A DNA stretch of 64,000 nt from an uncultured virus (IMG/VR IMGVR_UViG_3300005618_000016) (lineage: Duplodnaviria > Heunggongvirae > Uroviricota > Caudoviricetes). A program made the position numbers and the translations under genes. This document shows, one piece after another, positions 25,496 to 57,039 of the stretch. Location: the IMG/VR virus record IMGVR_UViG_3300005618_000016, one strand, 5' to 3'. Below the pieces are notes generated by a model that was not told the DNA's origin, searched no databases, and worked only from the letters and a program-made list of their open reading frames with translations. Every line of letters starts with the position of its first letter. Position 1 is the stretch's first letter.

Positions 25496-26041
25496 TCACG
25501 CAGCCTCCAAGGCATCACCGTCGACTGCCCGAAGAAGCGCAACGACGAGGAGCCCCGCGACGCAGCCACCGATGTGGCACCCGAACGAGACGTTGTCTTC
25601 GCCTCCGACGAAGGCGTGCCAAACGTTGATGCCGACGAAGGCGACTACGAAACCCATGAGGCGAGGGCGAAGGACCCCTGCCACAGCAAGGACTCCGAAG
25701 ATGGCCCCAGAGGCGCCCACCAAGGGCTCACTGGCGTTCGGGTTCACGAGTATGTGGAAGAGTCCGCCGGCAACGCCAGCGAGCGTGTAGAGGCTCAGGA
25801 AACGGAGGCTTCCGAGAGCCCTTTCCACGACGGTCCCGAAAAGGACCAGGAAGGCCATGTTACCGCCCAGGTGGATCAGGCTGTTGGGGTCGTGGAGGAA
25901 GAGGCTCGTGAAGAGAGTCTCGGGAGCGAAATGGACCGGGATCAGGCCGTAGATGTTGCAGACCGCCCGGCCACCGGCCCCTAACTCGAGGAGGTAGGCC
26001 AGAACGTTGGCGACCACGAGGAGGAGGGTCATGACTGGCAT
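25496..26041 (-). CDS. rhomboid-family intramembrane serine protease
   Basis: FTSLFLH...HLGGNM, VERALG, catalytic GASGA and CHIGG; about six TM segments. Confidence 0.92.
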   Translation of the reverse strand: MPVMTLLLVVANVLAYLLELGAGGRAVCNIYGLIPVHFAPETLFTSLFLHDPNSLIHLGGNMAFLVLFGTVVERALGSLRFLSLYTLAGVAGGLFHILVNPNASEPLVGASGAIFGVLAVAGVLRPRLMGFVVAFVGINVWHAFVGGEDNVSFGCHIGGCVAGLLVVALLRAVDGDALEAA

Positions 26042-27345
26042 GTGTAGTAGACGAAGCCTATCAGAGGTATATTCATTCTGCAACTTTTCCACCCCGGTTG
26101 TATGGACAAAAAGCGTTGGCTTCGTGAATACCGGCGGGATACGCTCCGTCTGGCCTCCCATGACCATGATTCACGCGATGAACGAGGCTCGCCGGAGTGC
26201 GTTCGATCTGATGCGCCGGCAGAGCCTCCGTACGGGGCGAGGGCTCGCTGAGGTGTACTTCCTCGGCGACGTCACGACCCACAGCATCGCCCACGCGCTC
26301 GAAGATCTCGGTTGGTTGACGATCCTCCCGGGGCGCAAAGGCCGTCCTTCGCAGATCCGCCTGACCGACGTGGGGCTGTGGGTGCTCGGGGGCGCATCGT
26401 GAGCCGCGTTGAACACTCGTACACGATTCTTCTTCCAGTTTCAGGAGAAGCGTTCGGGCGATGGCTCGACGAAAACCACGCGACCGTCGAGATCTCGTGC
26501 GCGCTAGGAACGTACCACGTTCGCGTCAACCGGCACCGTCTCGACTCTTTCAAGGAGTCCGGAAACGTCTCTGTTCGGCGGTGCGGAGACCTCGAAGTGT
26601 CCGCCTACAGCAAGACGCTCGAAGAGGCGCTTCTTACCGCCATGCAGAAGTGCATGGAGGAGCCTTTCAAGTGAGCCGCCGCGACACGCTGGCGCAGGCC
26701 GCCTGGCGCATTCAAGTGTTCGCGGCGAACGGGCGGGTTACGCAAGAACACCTGTTTTGTACGGGCGACTACGCGGTGGATGGCCACAACGCGCGCAAGC
26801 TCTTCGATGGGTTGAACCTCGTCGAAGGAAGTCGTGCCGAGTACCAAATCCGCCAAGAAGGAAAGTCTCGTTTTCAGACGTGGGGGCGCAAGGAACAACG
26901 CGACGGTCAAATGCGTCACCGTGAAGGCAAGCGATGATCACCACCGACCTCAAGCTCCTCGTCGACGTCGCCTGGCACAACCGAGACGGCCAGGCCCCCT
27001 ACCTTCTCGCCAAGGGTGAGTACGCCGCCGCCGAGCGCCTGTTGAAGCGCGGCCTGATCATGAACGGCGGAGGCGGACAGGTGGGCATCACCAGCGCCGG
27101 AGAACAGCTCATCGTCACGCTCTGCGGAAGGGTTGCGCGGGGCGGGGTGCGGAAGGCGAGAGGTGCGCTCTGATGGCCTGGCGTTACACCCAAGCGGGAC
27201 GAGAGGTCGGGCGACCGAGTAGCGAGCACGGTTTTCACGTGGAGGGTCCCCTCACGTCGGAAGACTGGAAGGGGATCATTCACGACATCGTCGAGGAGAT
27301 GGTCGAACAGGCGAAACTAGAAAGCGAAAGAAAGAGAAAAGTCTG

Positions 27346-48085: not shown

Positions 48086-48493
48086 ATGCTCGAAACGAAG
48101 ACCACCGAACTGCCTCCGCCGAATCCGGAAGCACCGATGCTCGTGACCGTATTCACCGACAATCTCGTCCCCGACGACAGGGACAACAACGCTTCGGTGG
48201 TGTGGGCTGTCAGCAAATCTCACCCGTACGTACCCGGGGTGAAAGTCCTGCGCATGTTCATCGCTCTCGAGCGCGGCGGAATCGAGATTTACTCCGTCTC
48301 CGAAGACGGGAAAATCTGCATGCGCGATCTGGTGCCGATGAGCCGCCTTCGTCTGGCCCAGGAAGCGATGACCTCCGAAATCTTCATCGACGAGCTCGCC
48401 GCCGCGGAAGAGGGCGGTGACGACGACGAAGACGAACCGGAAGACGAGCCCGAAACAACCCAGCCCTCCGCCAACGGGCAGGCGGCATCCTGA
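48086..48493 (+). CDS. hypothetical protein with an acidic tail
   Basis: GGAG SD. Confidence 0.6.
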   Translation: MLETKTTELPPPNPEAPMLVTVFTDNLVPDDRDNNASVVWAVSKSHPYVPGVKVLRMFIALERGGIEIYSVSEDGKICMRDLVPMSRLRLAQEAMTSEIFIDELAAAEEGGDDDEDEPEDEPETTQPSANGQAAS

Positions 48494-48497
48494 ACCG

Positions 48498-50090
48498 ATG
48501 TCGACACGTCGTAAACGATCCACCACGGAGCGCGAGGAGCGCTCTGGTTCCGTTCTCCTTCCCGATCAGGACGACGAAGCCGACATCTTGCGTGAGGTAG
48601 GCGCCGAGCCCGACGAGAACGGAGGCATGGTCGCCGACGAAGACAAGGTGCGCGAGATCGGGGCCGTGGACGCCGAGACCGTGCGCGCGAATCGCAGGAT
48701 GGAAGAGTTCCGGAAGCAGAAAGTCGGCAACGTTCCGGGCGTCATGTTCGGATCTGACGACGTGCTCGAGAAGTACGAGGCGATGTTGAGGGTGTGGCCC
48801 GCGAGCACTCTCGACATCTCCGTCAAGCGTCTCACCGGTGACGGTTCGACTCACACGATCAAGAGTCGTCCGCGTTCGGGGCACGAGCTCTACGAGGCGA
48901 TCCTATCCGTACACGGACAGAACGATGTCACCGAGTACGAGGTGAAGTGCTTCGACACGACCAGCAAGCAGTACCGCATCCACGGAGGGCGCATCAAAAT
49001 GCCGGACACGCGTCCTCCGACGCAGCAAGGACAACCCGCACCCATGCTGTACCCCCCGCCCGGGTATCCTCCGCAGCCTCCTTACTCGGGGTACCAGGCT
49101 CCGCAGCAGCCGGCGGCACCAGCGGCACCGGCGCATCCGGCCCCAGCTCCCGCCGTCGTCGATCCGATGGCGATGATGGGGCAGCTCCTTCAAATGCTGC
49201 CCCAGATCCAGCAGTTGTTGCAGCCGCAGCCACAGCCGCAGGTTGCGCAGCCGCCTCCGCCTCCTCCGCAGATGCCGCCGATGCCTCCGGCGTCCGATCC
49301 CGGCGCGATGCTGGTGTGGCTCCAACAGGCGGTGCAGACGATTCAGCAGATCCAATCCACGGCGCAGCCTCACCCTGCTCCGCAACAGCCTCCTCCGTAT
49401 CAGCCCCAGCAGCCGCCGCAACAGCAGCAGCCTCCGATGCCGCAAGGCCCGACGCGCGCGGCTCCTCCGGGCATGGCGTGGATCTGGGAACCCGGGTACG
49501 GTTTCGTGCTCTCCCCGGTCGGAGGAACTACTCCGTCGACTCCGATGTCTCCGATGGCGCGCGGACCGCGTCCCTCTTACTACAACCCGCAGAGGGACGA
49601 TCAACCGCATCGGGAGCCGCAGCGGGAAGCAGCGTTGCCACCGCCACGCACGGCCGCTCAGCAGTTCCAGGACTCGATCTCGACCATCCGTACCACTGTG
49701 GAGATGATGCGAGAGCTCAACGATCTGATTCCTGGCGCGGATCAGTCGAGCCCGTCCACTCCTTCTCAAGAGAGCGACAGCCCGATCGCTGTCATCCCCG
49801 CAGGTCCCGCCAAGATCGTCGTCAACACGTCGGACGGTTCGCTTCGTCTCATGGAGACTGCCTTCGCGAATATGGGGCCCCTCGCGAATTGGGTTGGAGA
49901 ACAGCACAAGATCATCCAGAGGGCTGCGGCGGATCGGCAGCGCCAGCAGCAGCCGCAACAGCAGCTCCAGGGACACGCGGTAGTGGAGGAAGCACCAGGA
50001 ACGGACCTTCCTCCTCCTCCAGAAGACGTTCCGCCTCCGATACACACAGGCAGGCGGACGTGGGAACCGCCCACGATCCCCGAAAGATGA
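48498..50090 (+). CDS. Pro/Gln-rich low-complexity protein
   Basis: globular N-terminal domain followed by long P/Q tracts. Confidence 0.75.
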   Translation: MSTRRKRSTTEREERSGSVLLPDQDDEADILREVGAEPDENGGMVADEDKVREIGAVDAETVRANRRMEEFRKQKVGNVPGVMFGSDDVLEKYEAMLRVWPASTLDISVKRLTGDGSTHTIKSRPRSGHELYEAILSVHGQNDVTEYEVKCFDTTSKQYRIHGGRIKMPDTRPPTQQGQPAPMLYPPPGYPPQPPYSGYQAPQQPAAPAAPAHPAPAPAVVDPMAMMGQLLQMLPQIQQLLQPQPQPQVAQPPPPPPQMPPMPPASDPGAMLVWLQQAVQTIQQIQSTAQPHPAPQQPPPYQPQQPPQQQQPPMPQGPTRAAPPGMAWIWEPGYGFVLSPVGGTTPSTPMSPMARGPRPSYYNPQRDDQPHREPQREAALPPPRTAAQQFQDSISTIRTTVEMMRELNDLIPGADQSSPSTPSQESDSPIAVIPAGPAKIVVNTSDGSLRLMETAFANMGPLANWVGEQHKIIQRAAADRQRQQQPQQQLQGHAVVEEAPGTDLPPPPEDVPPPIHTGRRTWEPPTIPER

Positions 50091-50315: not shown

Positions 50316-51416
50316 ATGCGCCTCTACGAAGTGCGGCCTGGCGATAGCCCCGCGGGCATCGCTTCTCGCCCTGACATGGCCGGCTGTCCCAAGTGTGCGA
50401 TCGATCTCATCCGCGCGAATCCGCACAAGGAGGCCGTCACGCTCCCGAACGGTTTCGTGACGTTCAAGGAACTGCGCGAGGGAGAAAAGCTCAACCTTCC
50501 GGACAAGTGGTTCAACGGCAGCTTGGACGCTCGTCCGAAGGCGTACTTCGCGGCGTTACCGCACCCTGACGGTACCTCGCCATCGAGTCTAGGACTCGCG
50601 GCAGCAGCAGGAGTGCTCGGCGACTACGCCGCTCTCGACGACGCAGTCGCCAGCGTGAACGCGCTCTCGACCATGGACGATCTCGCGTTCAGCTCGGCCG
50701 TCGAGGACGCTAGTACTCTGATCGGTAGAGCTGTGACCGAGGCAGCGAGCAGCACCAACCAGGTCGCCTCCGGTGCCGCAAAGGACGCGCAGGCGGGCGC
50801 CGTCTGGGCGATACGACGAGCTGTCGAGATGGCGTCCGCGCTCTCCTCAGGAGACCAAGCGACGGTCTACGCTGCGCGCCAGGACACGCAGAACGTGCTC
50901 TCCACGGCGCTCGACAGCGCTAGGACCGCATTGCGTGCTCTCTACGATCAACCTCAGGTGGACGTTCAGATCGGACCGGTCACCGTGGACACGTTCCCTG
51001 CGAACGTCGTGGACACGGCCAAGCGCGCCTCCTCTGCCATGGCTGCCGACGCGAACTACTGCGCGTCCGTCGCTCGCGCCGGCACCCCGGTGAACTCGAA
51101 CGTGCACGCCTTCAAGACCGCGTGGAACGCGTCGCAACCGAATCCGGTGCCGATCAACACCGGAAACTACGAGCAACCGACCGCCGATGCGCTTGCGAAG
51201 GTACTCGGGAACGCCCCATCAGCGTGCTCGACCCGAGCCGCGACTCCTGCTCCCGCTCCGATTCCTGCGCCGGTACCGGAGCGCATCGTATCCGTTCCGC
51301 AGAAGAAACCGATCAGCACTGCCGCAATCGCAGGCGCTGCCGCACTCGTTGCAGGCGCGGTCGGCGGCGTGGCTTACCTGGCCTCAAAGAGTCCGAAAAG
51401 AAAAAGGCGACGATGA
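50316..51416 (+). CDS. LysM-like membrane-anchored virion protein
   Basis: YEVRPGDSPAGIA...LIRANPHK...LREGEKLNLP; C-terminal TM and KSPKRKRR. Confidence 0.75.
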   Translation: MRLYEVRPGDSPAGIASRPDMAGCPKCAIDLIRANPHKEAVTLPNGFVTFKELREGEKLNLPDKWFNGSLDARPKAYFAALPHPDGTSPSSLGLAAAAGVLGDYAALDDAVASVNALSTMDDLAFSSAVEDASTLIGRAVTEAASSTNQVASGAAKDAQAGAVWAIRRAVEMASALSSGDQATVYAARQDTQNVLSTALDSARTALRALYDQPQVDVQIGPVTVDTFPANVVDTAKRASSAMAADANYCASVARAGTPVNSNVHAFKTAWNASQPNPVPINTGNYEQPTADALAKVLGNAPSACSTRAATPAPAPIPAPVPERIVSVPQKKPISTAAIAGAAALVAGAVGGVAYLASKSPKRKRRR

Positions 51417-52096
51417 CCCTGATCGACAAGCCGGTGGAAGGTGTGAAGACAGACGCTCGGCCTCATCCGGCTGGAGCGAAGGGTGCTCGCTTGTCGCTCA
51501 AGGAGGTCGCGGAGCGCGCGTGGAAAGCGCGCATGAGTCCGCGTCTTCGCGCGTGGGCCACGCAGGTGCTCGCCAAGGCGAACGTCTCGACCGGGAACCG
51601 TCGTCAGAAGGGGAAAGCGATCCTAGACGCGTACCGAGCGAAGGTTCCGTACATCGCCGATCCGGTGATGGGCGAGTTCATGGAGACTCCGGATCAGACG
51701 CTCTGTCTCGACGAGGGCGGACTCTGCTTCATCGGAACGGACTGCGACGGGTCCGCGATTGCGCTCGCTGCGGCGATGATGTCGATCGGGATCCCCGCGA
51801 TGATCGTCGGCAGCTCGCACAAGAATCCGTCTGACACTCCGACGCACGTGTTCATGGCGTTCGAGGACGACGACGGATCGTGGGTACGCATGGACGGAAC
51901 GACGAAGCACGAAGTTGGCTCCGCGCCTCCGCGCAAGCGCGAGTGGTGGGTCGAGCCCGGCGCGGAAGCGAAGGAGCGCGGTGAGGGAGACTTCGTCGGA
52001 ATGAGCGGAACGAACTCGTTCCTCGGGAACAGCTCCCCCAAAGAACGTCACCCGTCCATTTCACTGCTCGATCTGCGCTATCCCACGATCCGATAG
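51413..52096 (+). CDS. transglutaminase-like cysteine protease
   Basis: Cys-His-Asp triad: TDCDGSAIALAA..MSIG, THVF, WVRMDGT. Confidence 0.8.
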   Translation: MTLIDKPVEGVKTDARPHPAGAKGARLSLKEVAERAWKARMSPRLRAWATQVLAKANVSTGNRRQKGKAILDAYRAKVPYIADPVMGEFMETPDQTLCLDEGGLCFIGTDCDGSAIALAAAMMSIGIPAMIVGSSHKNPSDTPTHVFMAFEDDDGSWVRMDGTTKHEVGSAPPRKREWWVEPGAEAKERGEGDFVGMSGTNSFLGNSSPKERHPSISLLDLRYPTIR

Positions 52097-52344
52097 TGAT
52101 CCTGAAGTGATCCACTGAGATCACTTCTGTGTTCCTTATCTAGATCGTCGCGAGACACGTAGAAGGCCGTTTGGAACGGCACGTGTGATCCGCGTAACCG
52201 CACGGTTTGGTTGCCGTTTTCGCGCACGTGTGGATCTGGTGACGCACTCGACTTTCTCGTAACCACTGCTGTCGTGCGAAGCAAGTGCGCACGCTCGTAT
52301 TGACTCATCGAATTCGTATTGCGAGCCTGTTCAGGCACCGTGAC

Positions 52345-53991
52345 ATGGGCCTTTACGACGATCGACTTGCCGATCTCAGCGAAAAGCGGAGAAGCCGTAG
52401 CGTCGCGTCTCGGGGAAACCCGATGCTTCGCTCGGCAGGCAAAACTCGCTCGGGCTCAATGTCCGTCCAATCGCTGCTCTTCGATCGCAGCGCTGGCTGG
52501 ACGGAGAGCAGAGCCAAAGCGTGGGCGCAGTCGCACGGGTACAAGCACGGCAAGGCGGACGTCACCGACCGGTACGTTCGTCTTCGGCAGTCCGATCCAA
52601 AAGGGTTCGACGTAAAGAGGACCGTTCCATTCGGCCGCGGAATTCGAGCGGTCGTTGCACGCGAGGAAAGCAAAAGCATGGCCACCACCCGAAAGTCCAC
52701 CCGTCGCCGTCCCCGCCGCTCTTCCAAGAAGAAGACGGCGCGCAAGAGCCCTCGTCGTCGTGCTCGTCGAGTGTCCGCCGTCGCGGCACCCCGCCGTCGT
52801 CGGCGTCGGCCAGTGCGGGCGGCAGCTCCCAAGCGCGCGCGTCGCTCGTCGATGGTGATGGAGGCCCCGCGCAAGCGGCGGCGCCGGAGTCGGCGTCGCA
52901 CGACGGCGCGCGAGGCGTGGCGCGGCGACTCCCAGGGGCACGCGAAGGCGGCCCGGAAGGGGTGGCGCCGGAAGAAGAAGAGCGTCAAGCGTCACGGTCG
53001 GCGTCGTGCGCGCGAGTCCACCGTGATGGAGGCTCCGCGTCGCCATCGTCGGCGTCGCTCGAGTCGTCGGGTGCGTGAGACTTCGGTGGCCGCGCCGCGC
53101 AGGAGTCGTCATCGCCGTCACGCCCGGCGACATCACCGCATGCACGCGCCCTCGCGGCGCCGCGGTGGAATGGGCATCGGCATGTTCGCCGTCGCCGTCA
53201 CCTCGGGCGGGTTCGGCTTCATCGCCACCGACCTCATCGATCGTCTGCTCGCGACGTACGACCCGTCGGCGTCCGAGAAGCCGAAGGACCGATTCACGAG
53301 CGACGGCGCCGGCACGCTCGCGAACGTGCTCAACGTGGGCTCGCGTCCGACCCTCATCCGGGCCGGAGCAGGCGTGGGCATGACGGCGCTTCCCGCCATC
53401 GGGTCCATGTTCGTCGACAACCCCTACGGCAAGGCGGTGCTCCAGGGCACTGCATTCGGCGCAGGCGTGTCGACCCTGAACATGCTCTGGAAGACGCTCG
53501 TCATGCCGATGCTCGTCGGCAAGGACACGAGCGTTCCGACCCTCCAGAAGTCGTACATCGCGCGGCTCTACCCCGCCGAGGTGGCAGCGAAGATCAACCG
53601 TACGCAGAACCAGACTTCCGTCTCGAGCGCAGGCTCTGGCGCGCTGTCGGGTTCTCAGGACGTGGGTCCGTTCGCGCTCGCGGACTCTTCGCCGTATCCG
53701 TCCGCGGCCGATGCGCTTCGGCATCAGGCGGGAGTTCACGGTGACAGTCCGTACCCGAGCGCCTCGCAAGCGATCGGAACGCACGGCGACTCGCCGTACC
53801 CGAGCGCGAATCAGGCGCTCCGTTCGCAGGCCGGCATGGGTTACAACCCGGGCCCGCCCGACGGCCCCGGTCCGGGTCCCCAGGCCGAGCCGCACAAGGA
53901 CGCAGCGTGCAGCTCTTGCCTCGGTGATCCGACGATGCGGTTCTCGGCGTTCCTCGGAGACTCGTCCTCGGACGAATCGGCGACGCGCTGA
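52345..53991 (+). CDS. putative core protein: Tlr6F-like domain + protamine-like Arg-rich region + membrane helices + DSPYPSA repeats
   Basis: VQSLLFDRSAGWTESRAKAWAQSHGYK...YVRLRQ; about 165 aa rich in R/K/H; possible internal start at 52678. Confidence 0.75.
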   Translation: MGLYDDRLADLSEKRRSRSVASRGNPMLRSAGKTRSGSMSVQSLLFDRSAGWTESRAKAWAQSHGYKHGKADVTDRYVRLRQSDPKGFDVKRTVPFGRGIRAVVAREESKSMATTRKSTRRRPRRSSKKKTARKSPRRRARRVSAVAAPRRRRRRPVRAAAPKRARRSSMVMEAPRKRRRRSRRRTTAREAWRGDSQGHAKAARKGWRRKKKSVKRHGRRRARESTVMEAPRRHRRRRSSRRVRETSVAAPRRSRHRRHARRHHRMHAPSRRRGGMGIGMFAVAVTSGGFGFIATDLIDRLLATYDPSASEKPKDRFTSDGAGTLANVLNVGSRPTLIRAGAGVGMTALPAIGSMFVDNPYGKAVLQGTAFGAGVSTLNMLWKTLVMPMLVGKDTSVPTLQKSYIARLYPAEVAAKINRTQNQTSVSSAGSGALSGSQDVGPFALADSSPYPSAADALRHQAGVHGDSPYPSASQAIGTHGDSPYPSANQALRSQAGMGYNPGPPDGPGPGPQAEPHKDAACSSCLGDPTMRFSAFLGDSSSDESATR

Positions 53992-54108: not shown

Positions 54109-55434
54109 ATGGCCAAGCAGCAGAATCAGAGCAAGAAGAGCCCCAAGGCGATCATCGGTCGCCAGATCCACACCTTCCAGCGCGAGAAGGGGCTTCCCCA
54201 GAAGGCGAAGTTCGGTCTCGGTCAGCCCGCGCCGAAGCTCGACGAGGTTGGACTCGGCAGTCCCGAGGCTAAGGTCGGTCTCGCCGCCGCCGAGAAGTGC
54301 ATTCGTTGCAGCTTCGGCAACGTCCCCGTGATCGAGGAGGTCGTGTGGACGATCCCGCTCCCGCTCACGGCGGAAGAGGCGCTCTCGACCCTCGGCGACA
54401 CGGTGAACCTGCTCTCGGGCAGCTCCAGCGTGCCGGGCGTGGCGTCGATCGACTCCACGTTCCTCATCAACGGCATCCTCCAGACGGACATCCTCGCGCA
54501 GGGCGTGGGCGTGCACGTGTTCTGCGAGCCGATGTCGTTCTCGACGATCGGCAACGCGTTCAGCGCGCCGGACACGACTGTGGCTCCGCCTCCGTCGCCG
54601 GACGTGTTCACGTCGAACGATCTCGACAACGGTGCGTTCCCCGCATCCGTCGAGACGGACGGGTCGAACTTCGGTCCGGCCGTGTTCGAGTTCGGCAACC
54701 CGGTCTGGCGCGCGGGCTGGAACTTCATCAACGCGTACCAGTTCCAGTGGCGCACGTCGCAGCGCGAACTCGTGCTGAACGAGCTCGCGGCGGACGTCTC
54801 GTACTTCGGCTCCTTCGCGGACGCCGAGGCGGCGGGCACGAGCGAGGTCGCCATCATCGAGTACGTGGCTGCGGTCAACGCGACGTACCGCTCGAAGGGC
54901 AGCGCGACGATCTTCCTCCCCGTCAACTTCCGGCGGGTGGGCAGCGTCAACACGACGCCCGGCGACGCGACGACGAACACGGGCGTGTTCCACCCGACGC
55001 GCGACTTCGATCTCGCGCCGGTCACGTGGGGCGGCATGCGATTCCAGGGCTACGGCTGCCGAGGCCAGATGTACCGGCCGATCGAGAGCCCGTGCTTCCT
55101 CGAGCGCGGCATCCCCATCGGCATGCTGTTCCAGGTGCAGGACGCCGTGCACCAGGCGCAGATGCTCGAAGCGGTCACGATCAACAACGAGCCGCTCGGC
55201 ATCAACGTCAGCCCGGACGAGAACCTGTCCGACACGACGGCCACCGGCGCGGCCGTCATGCTGGAGCAGACGCTCGACGCGACGCCAGCCAACGTCCCCC
55301 AGCAGACCAACGTCTCCCGTCAGGTCTTCAAGGGCGGCATTCTCAAGCTCGCGATCAAGATCAAGGGCTGGGAGATGCCCGGCGGCTGGAAGGCGTTCTG
55401 CGCGGACTCGGGTCTCATCCCGAAGGCCGGCTGA
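54109..55434 (+). CDS. putative major capsid protein (jelly-roll candidate)
   Basis: 441 aa, beta-rich, near-exclusive C/G third positions, structured 5' UTR, terminator downstream; fold not verified. Confidence 0.6.
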   Translation: MAKQQNQSKKSPKAIIGRQIHTFQREKGLPQKAKFGLGQPAPKLDEVGLGSPEAKVGLAAAEKCIRCSFGNVPVIEEVVWTIPLPLTAEEALSTLGDTVNLLSGSSSVPGVASIDSTFLINGILQTDILAQGVGVHVFCEPMSFSTIGNAFSAPDTTVAPPPSPDVFTSNDLDNGAFPASVETDGSNFGPAVFEFGNPVWRAGWNFINAYQFQWRTSQRELVLNELAADVSYFGSFADAEAAGTSEVAIIEYVAAVNATYRSKGSATIFLPVNFRRVGSVNTTPGDATTNTGVFHPTRDFDLAPVTWGGMRFQGYGCRGQMYRPIESPCFLERGIPIGMLFQVQDAVHQAQMLEAVTINNEPLGINVSPDENLSDTTATGAAVMLEQTLDATPANVPQQTNVSRQVFKGGILKLAIKIKGWEMPGGWKAFCADSGLIPKAG

Positions 55435-55525: not shown

Positions 55526-56134
55526 ATGACCCAGCCGAGAGACGATCAAATCCGCAACCTCGCTCTGTACGCGCCGAAGATCGCGTTCGGGATGGTCGCA
55601 GGCGTGCCCCGCGTTCCGTTCGTCGATGAGATCCCGGTTCAGTTTTCGTCCTCGACGGTGAACGCGCCGCCGGTGGTGAACAACTTCCAGAACAACCTGT
55701 CGCAGGACACGTTGATCGAGCGCATCTCGTTCAACCTGTTCCAGCAGAACAGCTTTCCGGGCTCTCCGTTCCAGAGCACCTACTTCAACCAGCTCAAGCA
55801 GAGCGGCGCAACCGGCATCGGCGTGCAGCTTCAGGTGTACGGCGGTCCCAAGTACATCGTCTCGAACACCTTCGTCGATCTCGGCAACCTCGCCGACGTG
55901 CTCGCTGTGACGTGGCCGGCAGGATGGCCGCTCGCGAAGCAGAGCAACGTGAAGGTGAGCGCGATCCTCACGGAGACTCCCGTGAGCGTCCCGTACAACG
56001 CCACTCTCACGTTCCTCGGGTGGCAGTTCCTCGACAAGACGCTCGACGATCTCAGCGACGACGATTGCCGCGACCGCCTTCGGTCTCTCGGCATCGAAAC
56101 TCCCGATATCAAGAAGCTTCTGCTCCCGAAGTGA
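55526..56134 (+). CDS. putative small capsid protein (single jelly-roll candidate)
   Basis: 202 aa beta-rich; AAGGAG SD; ends in a TLTFLGWQF strand echoing IKIKGWEM in the capsid candidate. Confidence 0.5.
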   Translation: MTQPRDDQIRNLALYAPKIAFGMVAGVPRVPFVDEIPVQFSSSTVNAPPVVNNFQNNLSQDTLIERISFNLFQQNSFPGSPFQSTYFNQLKQSGATGIGVQLQVYGGPKYIVSNTFVDLGNLADVLAVTWPAGWPLAKQSNVKVSAILTETPVSVPYNATLTFLGWQFLDKTLDDLSDDDCRDRLRSLGIETPDIKKLLLPK

Positions 56135-56136
56135 AC

Positions 56137-57039
56137 ATGAGCGTCCGAGTCGACAATCTGATCCGCTTGCAGACGCACCCCAACGGTGCGCTCGGTGAGC
56201 TGCGATCCGTTCTCGATGACGGGCGCTACGAGATCGTCACCAACGGACCGAACCCGGAGTTTTCGTTCATCGGGAGCGACCCGTACAACACGAACGCCGG
56301 AACAGGGCTCATCGTTCCGACGACTCCATCGAGCGAGATCGACGATGCGCGGTATCTGTTCGTGCTCGCGCGCGCGAGTTTCGGGGTCGGAGAACAGAGC
56401 TCCGAGTACCGCGGGGTGCGACTCGTCGGAATTCGACAGTACGCGGAGCTCATCGCCCGAATTCCGCCCGGCACCCCGCCGCTTCCGAGTGAAGGAGGAC
56501 CGTCGGGTATCACCGTCTTCCGCAAGGAGATCGTGAGCCCGCTCTGGCACCCACCGGACGGGGACATCTCCTGGCACGTGATGATCATCAACAGGGTGCA
56601 GCGCGACAAGAGGAACCCGTTGAACTCGGACGGGCTCATGTTCCAGGACTCGCTCAGCCCGGCGATGCTCTACCAGACGATCGCGGGATCTTCGATTTCG
56701 CCCACCGCCTACACCGCGCCGAACGGCGGGCGTCCGTGGGGAAAGCCGCTCGCGGCGAGCCTCGGCAACATCCACGAGATGCGGTACCCGTGGCGCATGT
56801 TCAACGGGGAGTACGCGCTCGACATCCCGATCCCGGTTCCTTCCGACGTCGTGCTGTTCGCGAGCGTTCGACAGAACGATCCCGACACGAACCCGACGCT
56901 CGACACCACCGACTGCGCGTTCTTCTCGGCACTCTCCGAGGAGGATCGGTTCATGGTCGCCTACCACGAGTTCGCGCAGTACGGCGCCATCGCGGGGGCA
57001 CTCACGTTCGAGGAGAACCTCGGTAAGGAAGTCCCATGA
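56137..57039 (+). CDS. putative capsid/penton protein
   Basis: 300 aa beta-rich; third gene of the capsid cluster. Confidence 0.45.
   Translation: MSVRVDNLIRLQTHPNGALGELRSVLDDGRYEIVTNGPNPEFSFIGSDPYNTNAGTGLIVPTTPSSEIDDARYLFVLARASFGVGEQSSEYRGVRLVGIRQYAELIARIPPGTPPLPSEGGPSGITVFRKEIVSPLWHPPDGDISWHVMIINRVQRDKRNPLNSDGLMFQDSLSPAMLYQTIAGSSISPTAYTAPNGGRPWGKPLAASLGNIHEMRYPWRMFNGEYALDIPIPVPSDVVLFASVRQNDPDTNPTLDTTDCAFFSALSEEDRFMVAYHEFAQYGAIAGALTFEENLGKEVP

Follow-up and report, generated by a model that had tools for sequence, protein, structure and literature searches.

Small arginine-rich proteins that condense viral DNA are known from the Adenoviridae, Asfarviridae and Baculoviridae, and, according to the available text of the source that lists them, nothing indicates a substantial contribution of basic proteins to the neutralisation of the double-stranded DNA genomes of phages, which are held to be packed by a motor and neutralised by cations and polyamines (PMC3281028). 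Among prokaryotic viruses, the portion of PMC8459092 available to us describes for SPV1 of the Portogloboviridae a shell, a lipid layer inside it and a core of nucleoprotein made of VP1 and DNA. In this study, we analysed a stretch of 64,000 nucleotides (nt) of DNA from an uncultured virus (IMG/VR IMGVR_UViG_3300005618_000016), referred to below as the window, and in it the gene at positions 52345-53991 (+), whose 548-amino acid (aa) product joins a strongly basic arm to a hydrophobic, putatively membrane-inserted half. On the sequence evidence, we tentatively read this product as a virion protein that condenses the viral DNA, ties it to a viral membrane and is made as two isoforms, a proposal to which we give slightly less than an even chance.

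The long form is encoded between ATG 52345 and the stop codon at 53991, within an open frame that spans 52285-53991. Its product consists of five parts, i.e., a leader, a small folded domain (hereafter the N-domain), an arginine-rich arm, a hydrophobic half and a repeat tail (Table 1). The features listed in a preliminary description of this locus are all present, namely the open reading frame (ORF), a quoted peptide (VQSLLFDRSAGW...RLRQSDP, residues 41-85, within the N-domain), a stretch rich in Arg, Lys and His, hydrophobic segments and three DSPYPSA-type repeats, under which no DNA tandem repeats were found; a capsid candidate is indeed the next gene downstream, 117 nt after the stop. The arm is protamine-like at the sequence level, as had been claimed: it contains 36% Arg, 8.5% Lys and 8 His and carries a net charge of +67 over its 164 residues, and the charge lies between +51 and +89 in 18/18 sequences (the window and 17 loci), though the arm sequence itself diverges. 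For the region that precedes the anchor, 107 homologues give a median charge of +70. The membrane segments are likewise borne out at this level, as one strongly hydrophobic stretch and two moderate ones. Within the arm, a conserved island has the consensus EAWxGDxAGHAKAAxKGHRR in a 20-sequence alignment, and an AWxG(D/N)-type motif recurs in 65 of the 107 homologues.

The gene cannot be regarded as a chance ORF, because 166 proteins of the same architecture match it at E<=1e-3 (word-indexed search, 8000 candidates scored) and it recurs with unchanged gene order in 19 IMG/VR loci, whose contigs measure 5 to 125 kb; two of these loci, L012 and L013, are one sequence on two contigs, and L010 and L015 probably likewise. 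The best homologues share 56-58% identity across 94-99% of the query, and all of them are metagenomic and none has a Pfam domain. In the alignment of 20 homologues, 40/40 invariant columns fall in the anchor half and the arm aligns poorly. The features that are conserved are therefore the charge of the arm, the anchor, and an internal Shine-Dalgarno (SD) motif with its ATG. No match over cut-off was obtained when the whole protein and its parts were scanned against Pfam, PHROGs and NCBIfam, and the arm matched no Pfam family even at E<=10; a profile of the full-length protein gave a best E of only 0.68 against the PDB. In tblastn searches of 50,697 phage records, the whole protein, the N-domain, a second family member (P0190) and the capsid candidate all remained without a match, and our literature search on protamine-like proteins in membrane-containing phages and portoglobovirus-like bacterial viruses found no description of the protein or the virus group among the papers listed. 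Homologues of about 300 aa that appear to hold the C-terminal half only (P0093 and similar) are gene-calling truncations, because the matching locus holds the full open frame with the leader. The label ‘HU-beta’ that the Joint Genome Institute gives to homologue P0079 is not backed by Pfam.

The long form truly starts at ATG 52345, because the leader (MGLYDDRL..LSE) is conserved from there in all 12 sequences in which it was found (the window and 11 related loci) and the sequence upstream is not. A (C)GTGAC or a close variant stands directly before this ATG in 10/12 sequences. No SD motif precedes it and a scan for sigma-70 consensus promoters upstream of the gene found none; the long form may be translated from a short-leader or leaderless late transcript. 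The terminator-like hairpin that follows the transglutaminase-like gene, a single site where shuffled sequences lead one to expect 1.8, faintly suggests that a new transcript starts with the target gene. The second start at ATG 52678, which had been put forward earlier, is supported by the sequence, with an in-frame ATG 1-7 codons after the N-domain in 13/13 sequences; in 12/13, this ATG has an SD-like motif 8-15 nt upstream. This motif is mostly GAG-GAA (Glu-Glu), in which GAA is an AT-ending codon in a genome rich in G+C at third codon positions (GC3). All four loci that lack the N-domain retain the internal Met, three of them with a clear SD. As the internal ATG and the SD are conserved, and the Met is kept even where the N-domain is missing, a short form of 437 aa is likely to be made; it may even be the major product, because the upstream ATG has no SD.

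The target gene sits in a fixed particle gene module of undescribed bacterial viruses of soil with genomes of 80-125 kb. A tblastn comparison of 18 window proteins with the 19 loci gave a fixed gene order, with genes for a RadC-like protein, a P/Q-rich 557-aa protein, a 63-aa protein, a LysM protein and a transglutaminase-like protein before the target, and then for proteins of 441 aa, 202 aa (p202) and about 300 aa (p375). The three genes downstream of the target are present in 19/19 loci, the transglutaminase-like gene in 16/19 and the other upstream genes in 15-17/19. The 441-aa product, encoded by the best conserved gene of the module, is the likely major capsid protein, and the 202-aa and 375-aa products are probably further shell proteins. 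Judged by its gene content, the host is a bacterium, because the window combines a phage-type replication set (AAA_24, a PD-(D/E)XK nuclease, an exonuclease, SF1 and SF2 helicases, and a 941-aa primase-polymerase) with LysM and peptidoglycan-binding (PG-binding) proteins and an amidase that has a PG-binding domain. The window also encodes two DNA methylases and a rhomboid protease.

The hallmarks of tailed phages (terminase, portal, HK97 capsid) went undetected in this group, with portal and capsid families not searched one by one across whole genomes. Five relatives (G002-G006) are rated complete at 96-120 kb, and one of them, the 116-kb genome, has direct terminal repeats. Pfam recognised in the latter replication genes, ThyX, a rhomboid, a subtilase, glycosyltransferases, a collagen-like fibre and integrases, and found no terminase, portal, capsid, tail or packaging ATPase among 80 of its ORFs; PHROGs gave for the same 80 ORFs only low-complexity collagen and partial ‘baseplate hub’ labels of a structural kind. 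No head or packaging family was seen in 40 ORFs of the window. Six-frame searches of the five complete genomes for Terminase_6N and for Pox_A32 gave 0/5 each, and FtsK_SpoIIIE was over cut-off in 0/5, with one 11-bit match at E 0.006. Taken together, this looks like an undescribed virus lineage.

From this architecture and setting we infer virion presence, DNA binding, membrane insertion with its topology, and the use of both starts. The arginine arm would bind and neutralise the viral DNA, the hydrophobic C-terminal half would be inserted in a viral lipid membrane, and the protein would in this way tie a protein-condensed genome to the membrane. Two products of one frame are envisaged, a long one from ATG 52345 with the leader and the optional domain, and a short one from the internal SD and ATG 52678. 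Such tethered condensation may replace, at least partly, motor-driven packaging. A farther-reaching version, which we regard as doubtful, is that these viruses form a motor-less lineage in which a two-isoform, membrane-anchored protamine condenses the genome, and the DNA would assemble jointly with an internal membrane and a jelly-roll-type shell, as in portoglobovirus, adenovirus and baculovirus cores. If this were true, no bacterial virus before it would have had a protein-condensed ‘chromatin’ core. An arm of +67 on a membrane anchor in a virus in which no packaging genes were detected points to another way to build a bacterial virion, one for which the only examples known to date are viruses of archaea and eukaryotes.

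Several observations weigh against the proposal. Only one hydrophobic stretch is strong (Kyte-Doolittle (KD) value 1.66), the other two being marginal. With a charge of +67, the arm should stay on the cytoplasmic side of the membrane, and in a PRD1-like assembly this side faces the capsid, not the DNA, which poses a topology problem. As Arg-Glu-Glu codons yield GAGGA anyway, conservation of the internal SD is confounded with conservation of the protein. The AlphaFold2 (AF2) model of the capsid candidate reached a mean predicted local distance difference test score (pLDDT) of only 33.9, with 13 close sequences at hand, and since its fold was thus not obtained, we can only infer the particle type. 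The missing packaging ATPase means no detectable similarity and nothing more, so that a very divergent ATPase is possible, and the scan of the 116-kb relative covered 80 of 180 heuristic ORFs (>=130 aa, four such being left out). Furthermore, no robust scaling of arm charge with genome size was seen in the five complete genomes (96 kb, +60; 109 kb, +67; 116 kb, +55; 117 kb, +82; 120 kb, +83), which are not independent points.

Adenovirus pVII and pre-mu and baculovirus P6.9 are, like the target protein, arginine-rich, cationic proteins of low complexity that are encoded among the particle genes of double-stranded DNA viruses. However, the target has no sequence relation to pVII or mu that Pfam could detect and no adenain sites; a covalent bond links its arm with a membrane anchor, and its host is bacterial. 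A parallel in overall design is found in the Portogloboviridae, prokaryotic viruses that, according to the available text of PMC8459092, enclose a protein-condensed genome in a membrane within a shell, the very architecture that we propose here. In contrast to the bacterial viruses studied here, SPV1 infects archaea and has a circular genome of 20 kb, and its VP1 is a separate soluble nucleocapsid protein, whereas the target carries its arginine arm on a membrane anchor. DNA-condensing proteins of viruses are thus a known kind; a membrane-anchored form in an undescribed group of bacterial viruses would be new.

Judged by its sequence, the N-domain belongs to an unnamed, mostly viral family, with 1126 matches at E<=1e-3 and 133 at E<=1e-10 (phmmer, residues 39-112, 1.84 billion representatives), and residues 39-108 of the target are a clear member (E down to 6e-32; hidden Markov model (HMM) E 3e-35). 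An alignment of 45 small proteins listed in that search together with the target’s domain shows W22, R43, Q44 and P47 to be invariant in all 46 sequences and gives the consensus QSLLFxR..WT..AK.WA..HGY..GKVDVTD.Y.RLRQ.DP...RTI.FG.GIKAVV; the invariant W, RxRQ..P and RT.xFG.G.KAV are the motifs common to the family and the target. The AF2 model of the domain is confident (pLDDT 91.7, predicted template modelling score 0.79) and has a strand-helix-four strands (beta-alpha-beta4) order. The family is large, mostly viral, unnamed and confidently modelled, and it has no PDB counterpart, as its profile found 0 matches among PDB sequences at E<=10 and a Foldseek search of the model against the PDB found 0 at E<=1e-3. 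In BFVD, two proteins matched in structure at E<=1e-3, an unnamed one of 311 aa and a 97-aa protein of Armadillidium vulgare iridescent virus (TM-score over the query (TMq) 0.78, 26% identity), followed next by a protein of Pseudomonas phage SM1. The nearest Atlas clusters hold 70-aa viral hypothetical proteins labelled mostly Uroviricota, and one nearby cluster is labelled mostly Preplasmiviricota, the phylum being known for 39 of its 281 members. A match to Ish1 in 6/46 family members reached 17-18 bits against a cut-off of 26.6, and the idea of a HeH or DNA-binding domain was dropped because the model shows a single helix in the Ish1 stretch. Another match, to DUF5894, occurs in 3/46 members with a best E of 0.021 and is regarded as chance.

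The preliminary description had taken the N-domain for Tlr6F, a view that it proposed to give up if a profile comparison found no match. According to the accessible parts of PMC4642659 and PMC3671162, Tlr6F is a small protein that lacks any known domain and occurs in Polinton-like viruses, virophages, giant viruses and some phages. All 13 coding sequences labelled Tlr6F in supplementary file 1 of PMC4642659, as far as that file was available, carry KKxMAxF...KTxHFG...Y..RH...AGxLS..ILW. The same motif, in the fuller form KKxMAxF...KTTHFGAxG...Y..RH...AGxLS..ILW, marks the stand-alone proteins of about 100 aa that we collected from IMG/VR with a short degenerate motif (87 loci, 64 distinct ORFs, 36 aligned), a set that, having been gathered via one motif, covers only part of the family; it does not occur in the N-domain. 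All 36 of these proteins match Pfam DUF5754 (PF19058), which is named as the Tlr6f family in the available text of PMC12220804. Compared by hhalign, the 46-sequence N-domain alignment and the 36-sequence Tlr6F alignment gave a probability of 0.1% and an E of 0.55 over 12 aligned columns. None of the 46 N-domain proteins matches DUF5754 at E<=0.1, and DUF5754 matches neither the whole target protein nor its N-domain even at E<=10; a search for it in the genomes of this virus group gave 0/5, with no control genome giving a signal in that search. The two families are alike in being small uncharacterised domains spread across many viruses and share a five-residue look-alike (RTIxFG against KTTHFG), but they have different conserved motifs and no detectable homology, and the identification is refuted. 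The suggested link between bacterial and eukaryotic Varidnaviria, which rested on this match, falls with it, and its removal matters because it clears away a false evolutionary bridge from this group to the Polinton-like viruses. The N-domain is found in some records of eukaryotic viruses, as a small mobile module and not as Tlr6F.

How this module is used elsewhere bears on its likely role here. From 133 proteins newly listed in the phmmer search, 4 of the target’s own family and 7 without the seed motif were set aside; among the remaining 122, 44 proteins are no longer than 160 aa and 85 carry the domain at the C-terminus. Of the longer proteins, 51 have a C-terminal copy, and in 31 of these a strongly hydrophobic 19-mer lies no more than 90 residues upstream of it. 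Partner Pfam domains were over cut-off in 5 of 45 multi-domain proteins (HAMP, RelA_SpoT, NUDIX, DUF5661 and L5 gp82), with SLT and glucosaminidase matches just below, and in none of the 45 did Pfam cover the N-domain itself. Because its usual place in the proteins of other viruses is at the end, behind a membrane helix, the N-domain is, by analogy, most likely a membrane-proximal interaction module. The target differs from this pattern: elsewhere the domain usually forms a protein by itself or makes up the very C-terminus behind a membrane helix, whereas here it is N-terminal and precedes the arm. Within this virus group, it occurs once per genome and only in the target protein (by HMM, in the window, the loci and the 116-kb relative), in frame with the anchor in 13 of the 17 loci that have the 5' part. 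The other four lack it and still hold the leader and the junction, and on these sequences it is an optional part of the protein. As separate observations, the giant protein P0137 (4336 aa) has four copies of the domain and a HAMP domain, and an NP dipeptide, often ENP or (R/F)ENP, lies 4-22 residues upstream of 50 of 98 copies (windows of up to 30 residues; background, 17% of windows). The target has RGNPMLR at this position, and relatives without the N-domain retain the sequence of that site. The dipeptide may be a linear motif or a cleavage site.

The membrane-proximal placement of the domain in other viral membrane proteins fits a different role for the target, that of a glue between membrane and capsid or an assembly scaffold, whose arm would lie between the membrane and the shell, bind acidic lipid heads and the acidic inner face of the capsid instead of DNA, and help the shell to form on a membrane patch. 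A role of this sort is attributed to small membrane-associated proteins of PRD1 or PM2. The target lies directly before the capsid candidate, and the positive-inside rule would put its arm on the cytoplasmic face, where soluble capsid proteins would assemble; this explanation stays alive because in a PRD1-like pathway a cytoplasmic arm would face the shell. Nevertheless, we consider it unlikely. A charge of +67 over 164 residues with 36% Arg far exceeds what contacts to lipid or protein need and fits DNA-condensing proteins, and in a virus with no detectable packaging motor a condensing agent is needed, for which the target is the obvious candidate.

A genome-delivery (pilot) protein that enters the host with the DNA, coats and protects it, and helps to cross or remodel the host membrane with its hydrophobic half would also combine a DNA-binding-type arm with membrane segments. 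Neighbouring genes encode domains that bind or degrade cell walls (LysM, PG_binding and the transglutaminase-like papain fold), and in other proteins the N-domain has fusion partners of kinds typical for proteins that are injected or act in entry (SLT- or glucosaminidase-like, RelA_SpoT and NUDIX domains). There is, however, no sign of ejection, and what is strictly conserved is the anchor half and no recognisable membrane-active motif. A pilot function is compatible with that of a DNA-condensing core protein and does not exclude it, but as an explanation of this protein we find it quite improbable.

The arm repeat, (V/A)(M/A)(E/A)-A-P-(R/K)-R-R-R, brings up another possibility, namely that the protein is a precursor cut at V(M/A)(E/A)-AP(R/K), or in the anchor, by the papain-fold neighbour or a rhomboid into free basic peptides, by analogy with pVII and mu. 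Cuts at the five AP(R/K) sites of the target would give pieces of 13-56 residues, such sites recur in the homologues (median 2, range 0-8), a papain-fold gene adjoins, and the window and the 116-kb relative share a conserved rhomboid gene. But AP(R/K) does not look like a fixed protease site, because the residue before Ala-Pro varies (among 274 sites, 48% have Ala and 20% Glu) and so does the number of sites, down to none in some homologues; the motif may be a mere spacer between Arg runs, and the papain-fold neighbour, placed among cell-wall-binding genes, may be a wall hydrolase. No adenain-type site, (M/I/L)xGxG or (M/I/L)xGGx, is present in the target, and cleavage of the T4 type at (L/I)xE was rejected on the same 20% share of Glu. 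The earlier description of the product as a ‘polyprotein’ processed like adenovirus pVII is unsupported, as there is neither an adenain site nor a fixed residue before AP(R/K) nor an adenain homologue, and a precursor of this kind appears slightly less probable still than a pilot protein.

Least probable of all is a membrane protein of the infected cell, outside the virion, that compacts or sequesters host or viral DNA at the membrane or times lysis like a holin or antiholin; dual-start membrane proteins are classic in lysis control, but the target is fixed in the most conserved, high-GC3, particle-type block in 19/19 loci, the amidase gene is 10 kb distant and has the opposite orientation, and 548 aa with an arm of +67 resemble no holin.

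Table 1. Positions in the window of the target gene, its parts and adjacent elements
Feature	Position	Strand	Remarks
Transglutaminase-like (papain-fold) gene	51410-52096	+	Transglut_core E 2e-5, over cut-off; 55-75% identity in 16/19 loci
Terminator-like hairpin	52104-52127	+	after the transglutaminase-like gene
Conserved upstream region	52300-52344	+	TTGAC-like box ~40 nt upstream; CGTGAC abutting the ATG
Leader	52345-52458	+	residues 1-38, MGLYDDRLADLSEKRR...; retained also in relatives without the N-domain
N-domain	52459-52668	+	residues 39-108, 70 aa; small alpha/beta domain
Internal Shine-Dalgarno GAGGA	52663-52667	+	inside Arg-Glu-Glu codons; 10 nt before ATG 52678
Arginine-rich arm	52669-53160	+	residues 109-272, 164 aa; V(M/A)(E/A)AP(R/K)RRR repeats
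Predicted short form	52678-53991	+	437 aa; arm and anchor, without leader or N-domain
Conserved island within the arm	52912-52983	+	EAWRGDSQGHAKAARKGWRRKKKS
Main hydrophobic (putative membrane) segment	53170-53226	+	MGIGMFAVAVTSGGFGFIA, 19-mer, KD 1.66; invariant DRLLATY after it
Second, moderately hydrophobic 19-mer	53353-53409	+	KD 1.19
Third, moderately hydrophobic 19-mer	53461-53517	+	KD 1.20
Three (D)SPYPSA...QALR repeats	53689-53706, 53746-53763, 53791-53808	+	at the protein level
PGPPDGPGPGPQ tract and CSSC motif	53848-53919	+	near the C-terminus; P502-Q513 nearly invariant, C522 invariant
Likely major capsid gene	54109-55434	+	441 aa, GC3 0.92; 64-77% identity in 19/19 loci

The capsid candidate is listed as an ORF from GTG 54049, but 17 relatives place its start at ATG 54109 (MAK...S(I/L)(I/V)GR), and several of them have a stop codon upstream of the matching Met. 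Against PDB sequences, its best E was 0.63; its language-model features resemble those of Cressdnaviricota capsid-type clusters in the Atlas at 0.88-0.90, which is to be taken as a lead only. The ORFs for the 202-aa (55526-56134) and 375-aa (55912-57039) proteins overlap as listed, and both are 47-79% identical over the 19 loci. Because relatives of the 375-aa ORF align only from about residue 57-83, its true start is probably near 56134. Upstream, the 557-aa protein (48417-50090, +), found in 15/19 loci, has a long Pro/Gln-rich middle with PQQPP runs and no family match, and a long ORF lies over it on the opposite strand.

A few further features of the group may be mentioned. The rhomboid intramembrane protease gene lies at 25496-26167 (-) in the window and at L022:4434-5117 (-) in the 116-kb relative; rhomboids are unusual for a bacterial virus, and this one could process the single-pass membrane proteins of the virus. 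An IS1595-family transposase is located within the 116-kb genome (G004, L022:17269-18303, +). In a subgroup of three loci on contigs of 117-125 kb (L014, L016 and L017), the target protein has 1060-1210 aa; its arm is longer and richer in Lys, with a net charge between +82 and +89, and the anchor is followed by some 430-520 additional residues. DNA nearly identical to that studied here occurs in 24 sequencing runs, with no RNA run listed among them and all of them soil, rhizosphere or freshwater metagenomes, those from soil and rhizosphere coming from several studies.

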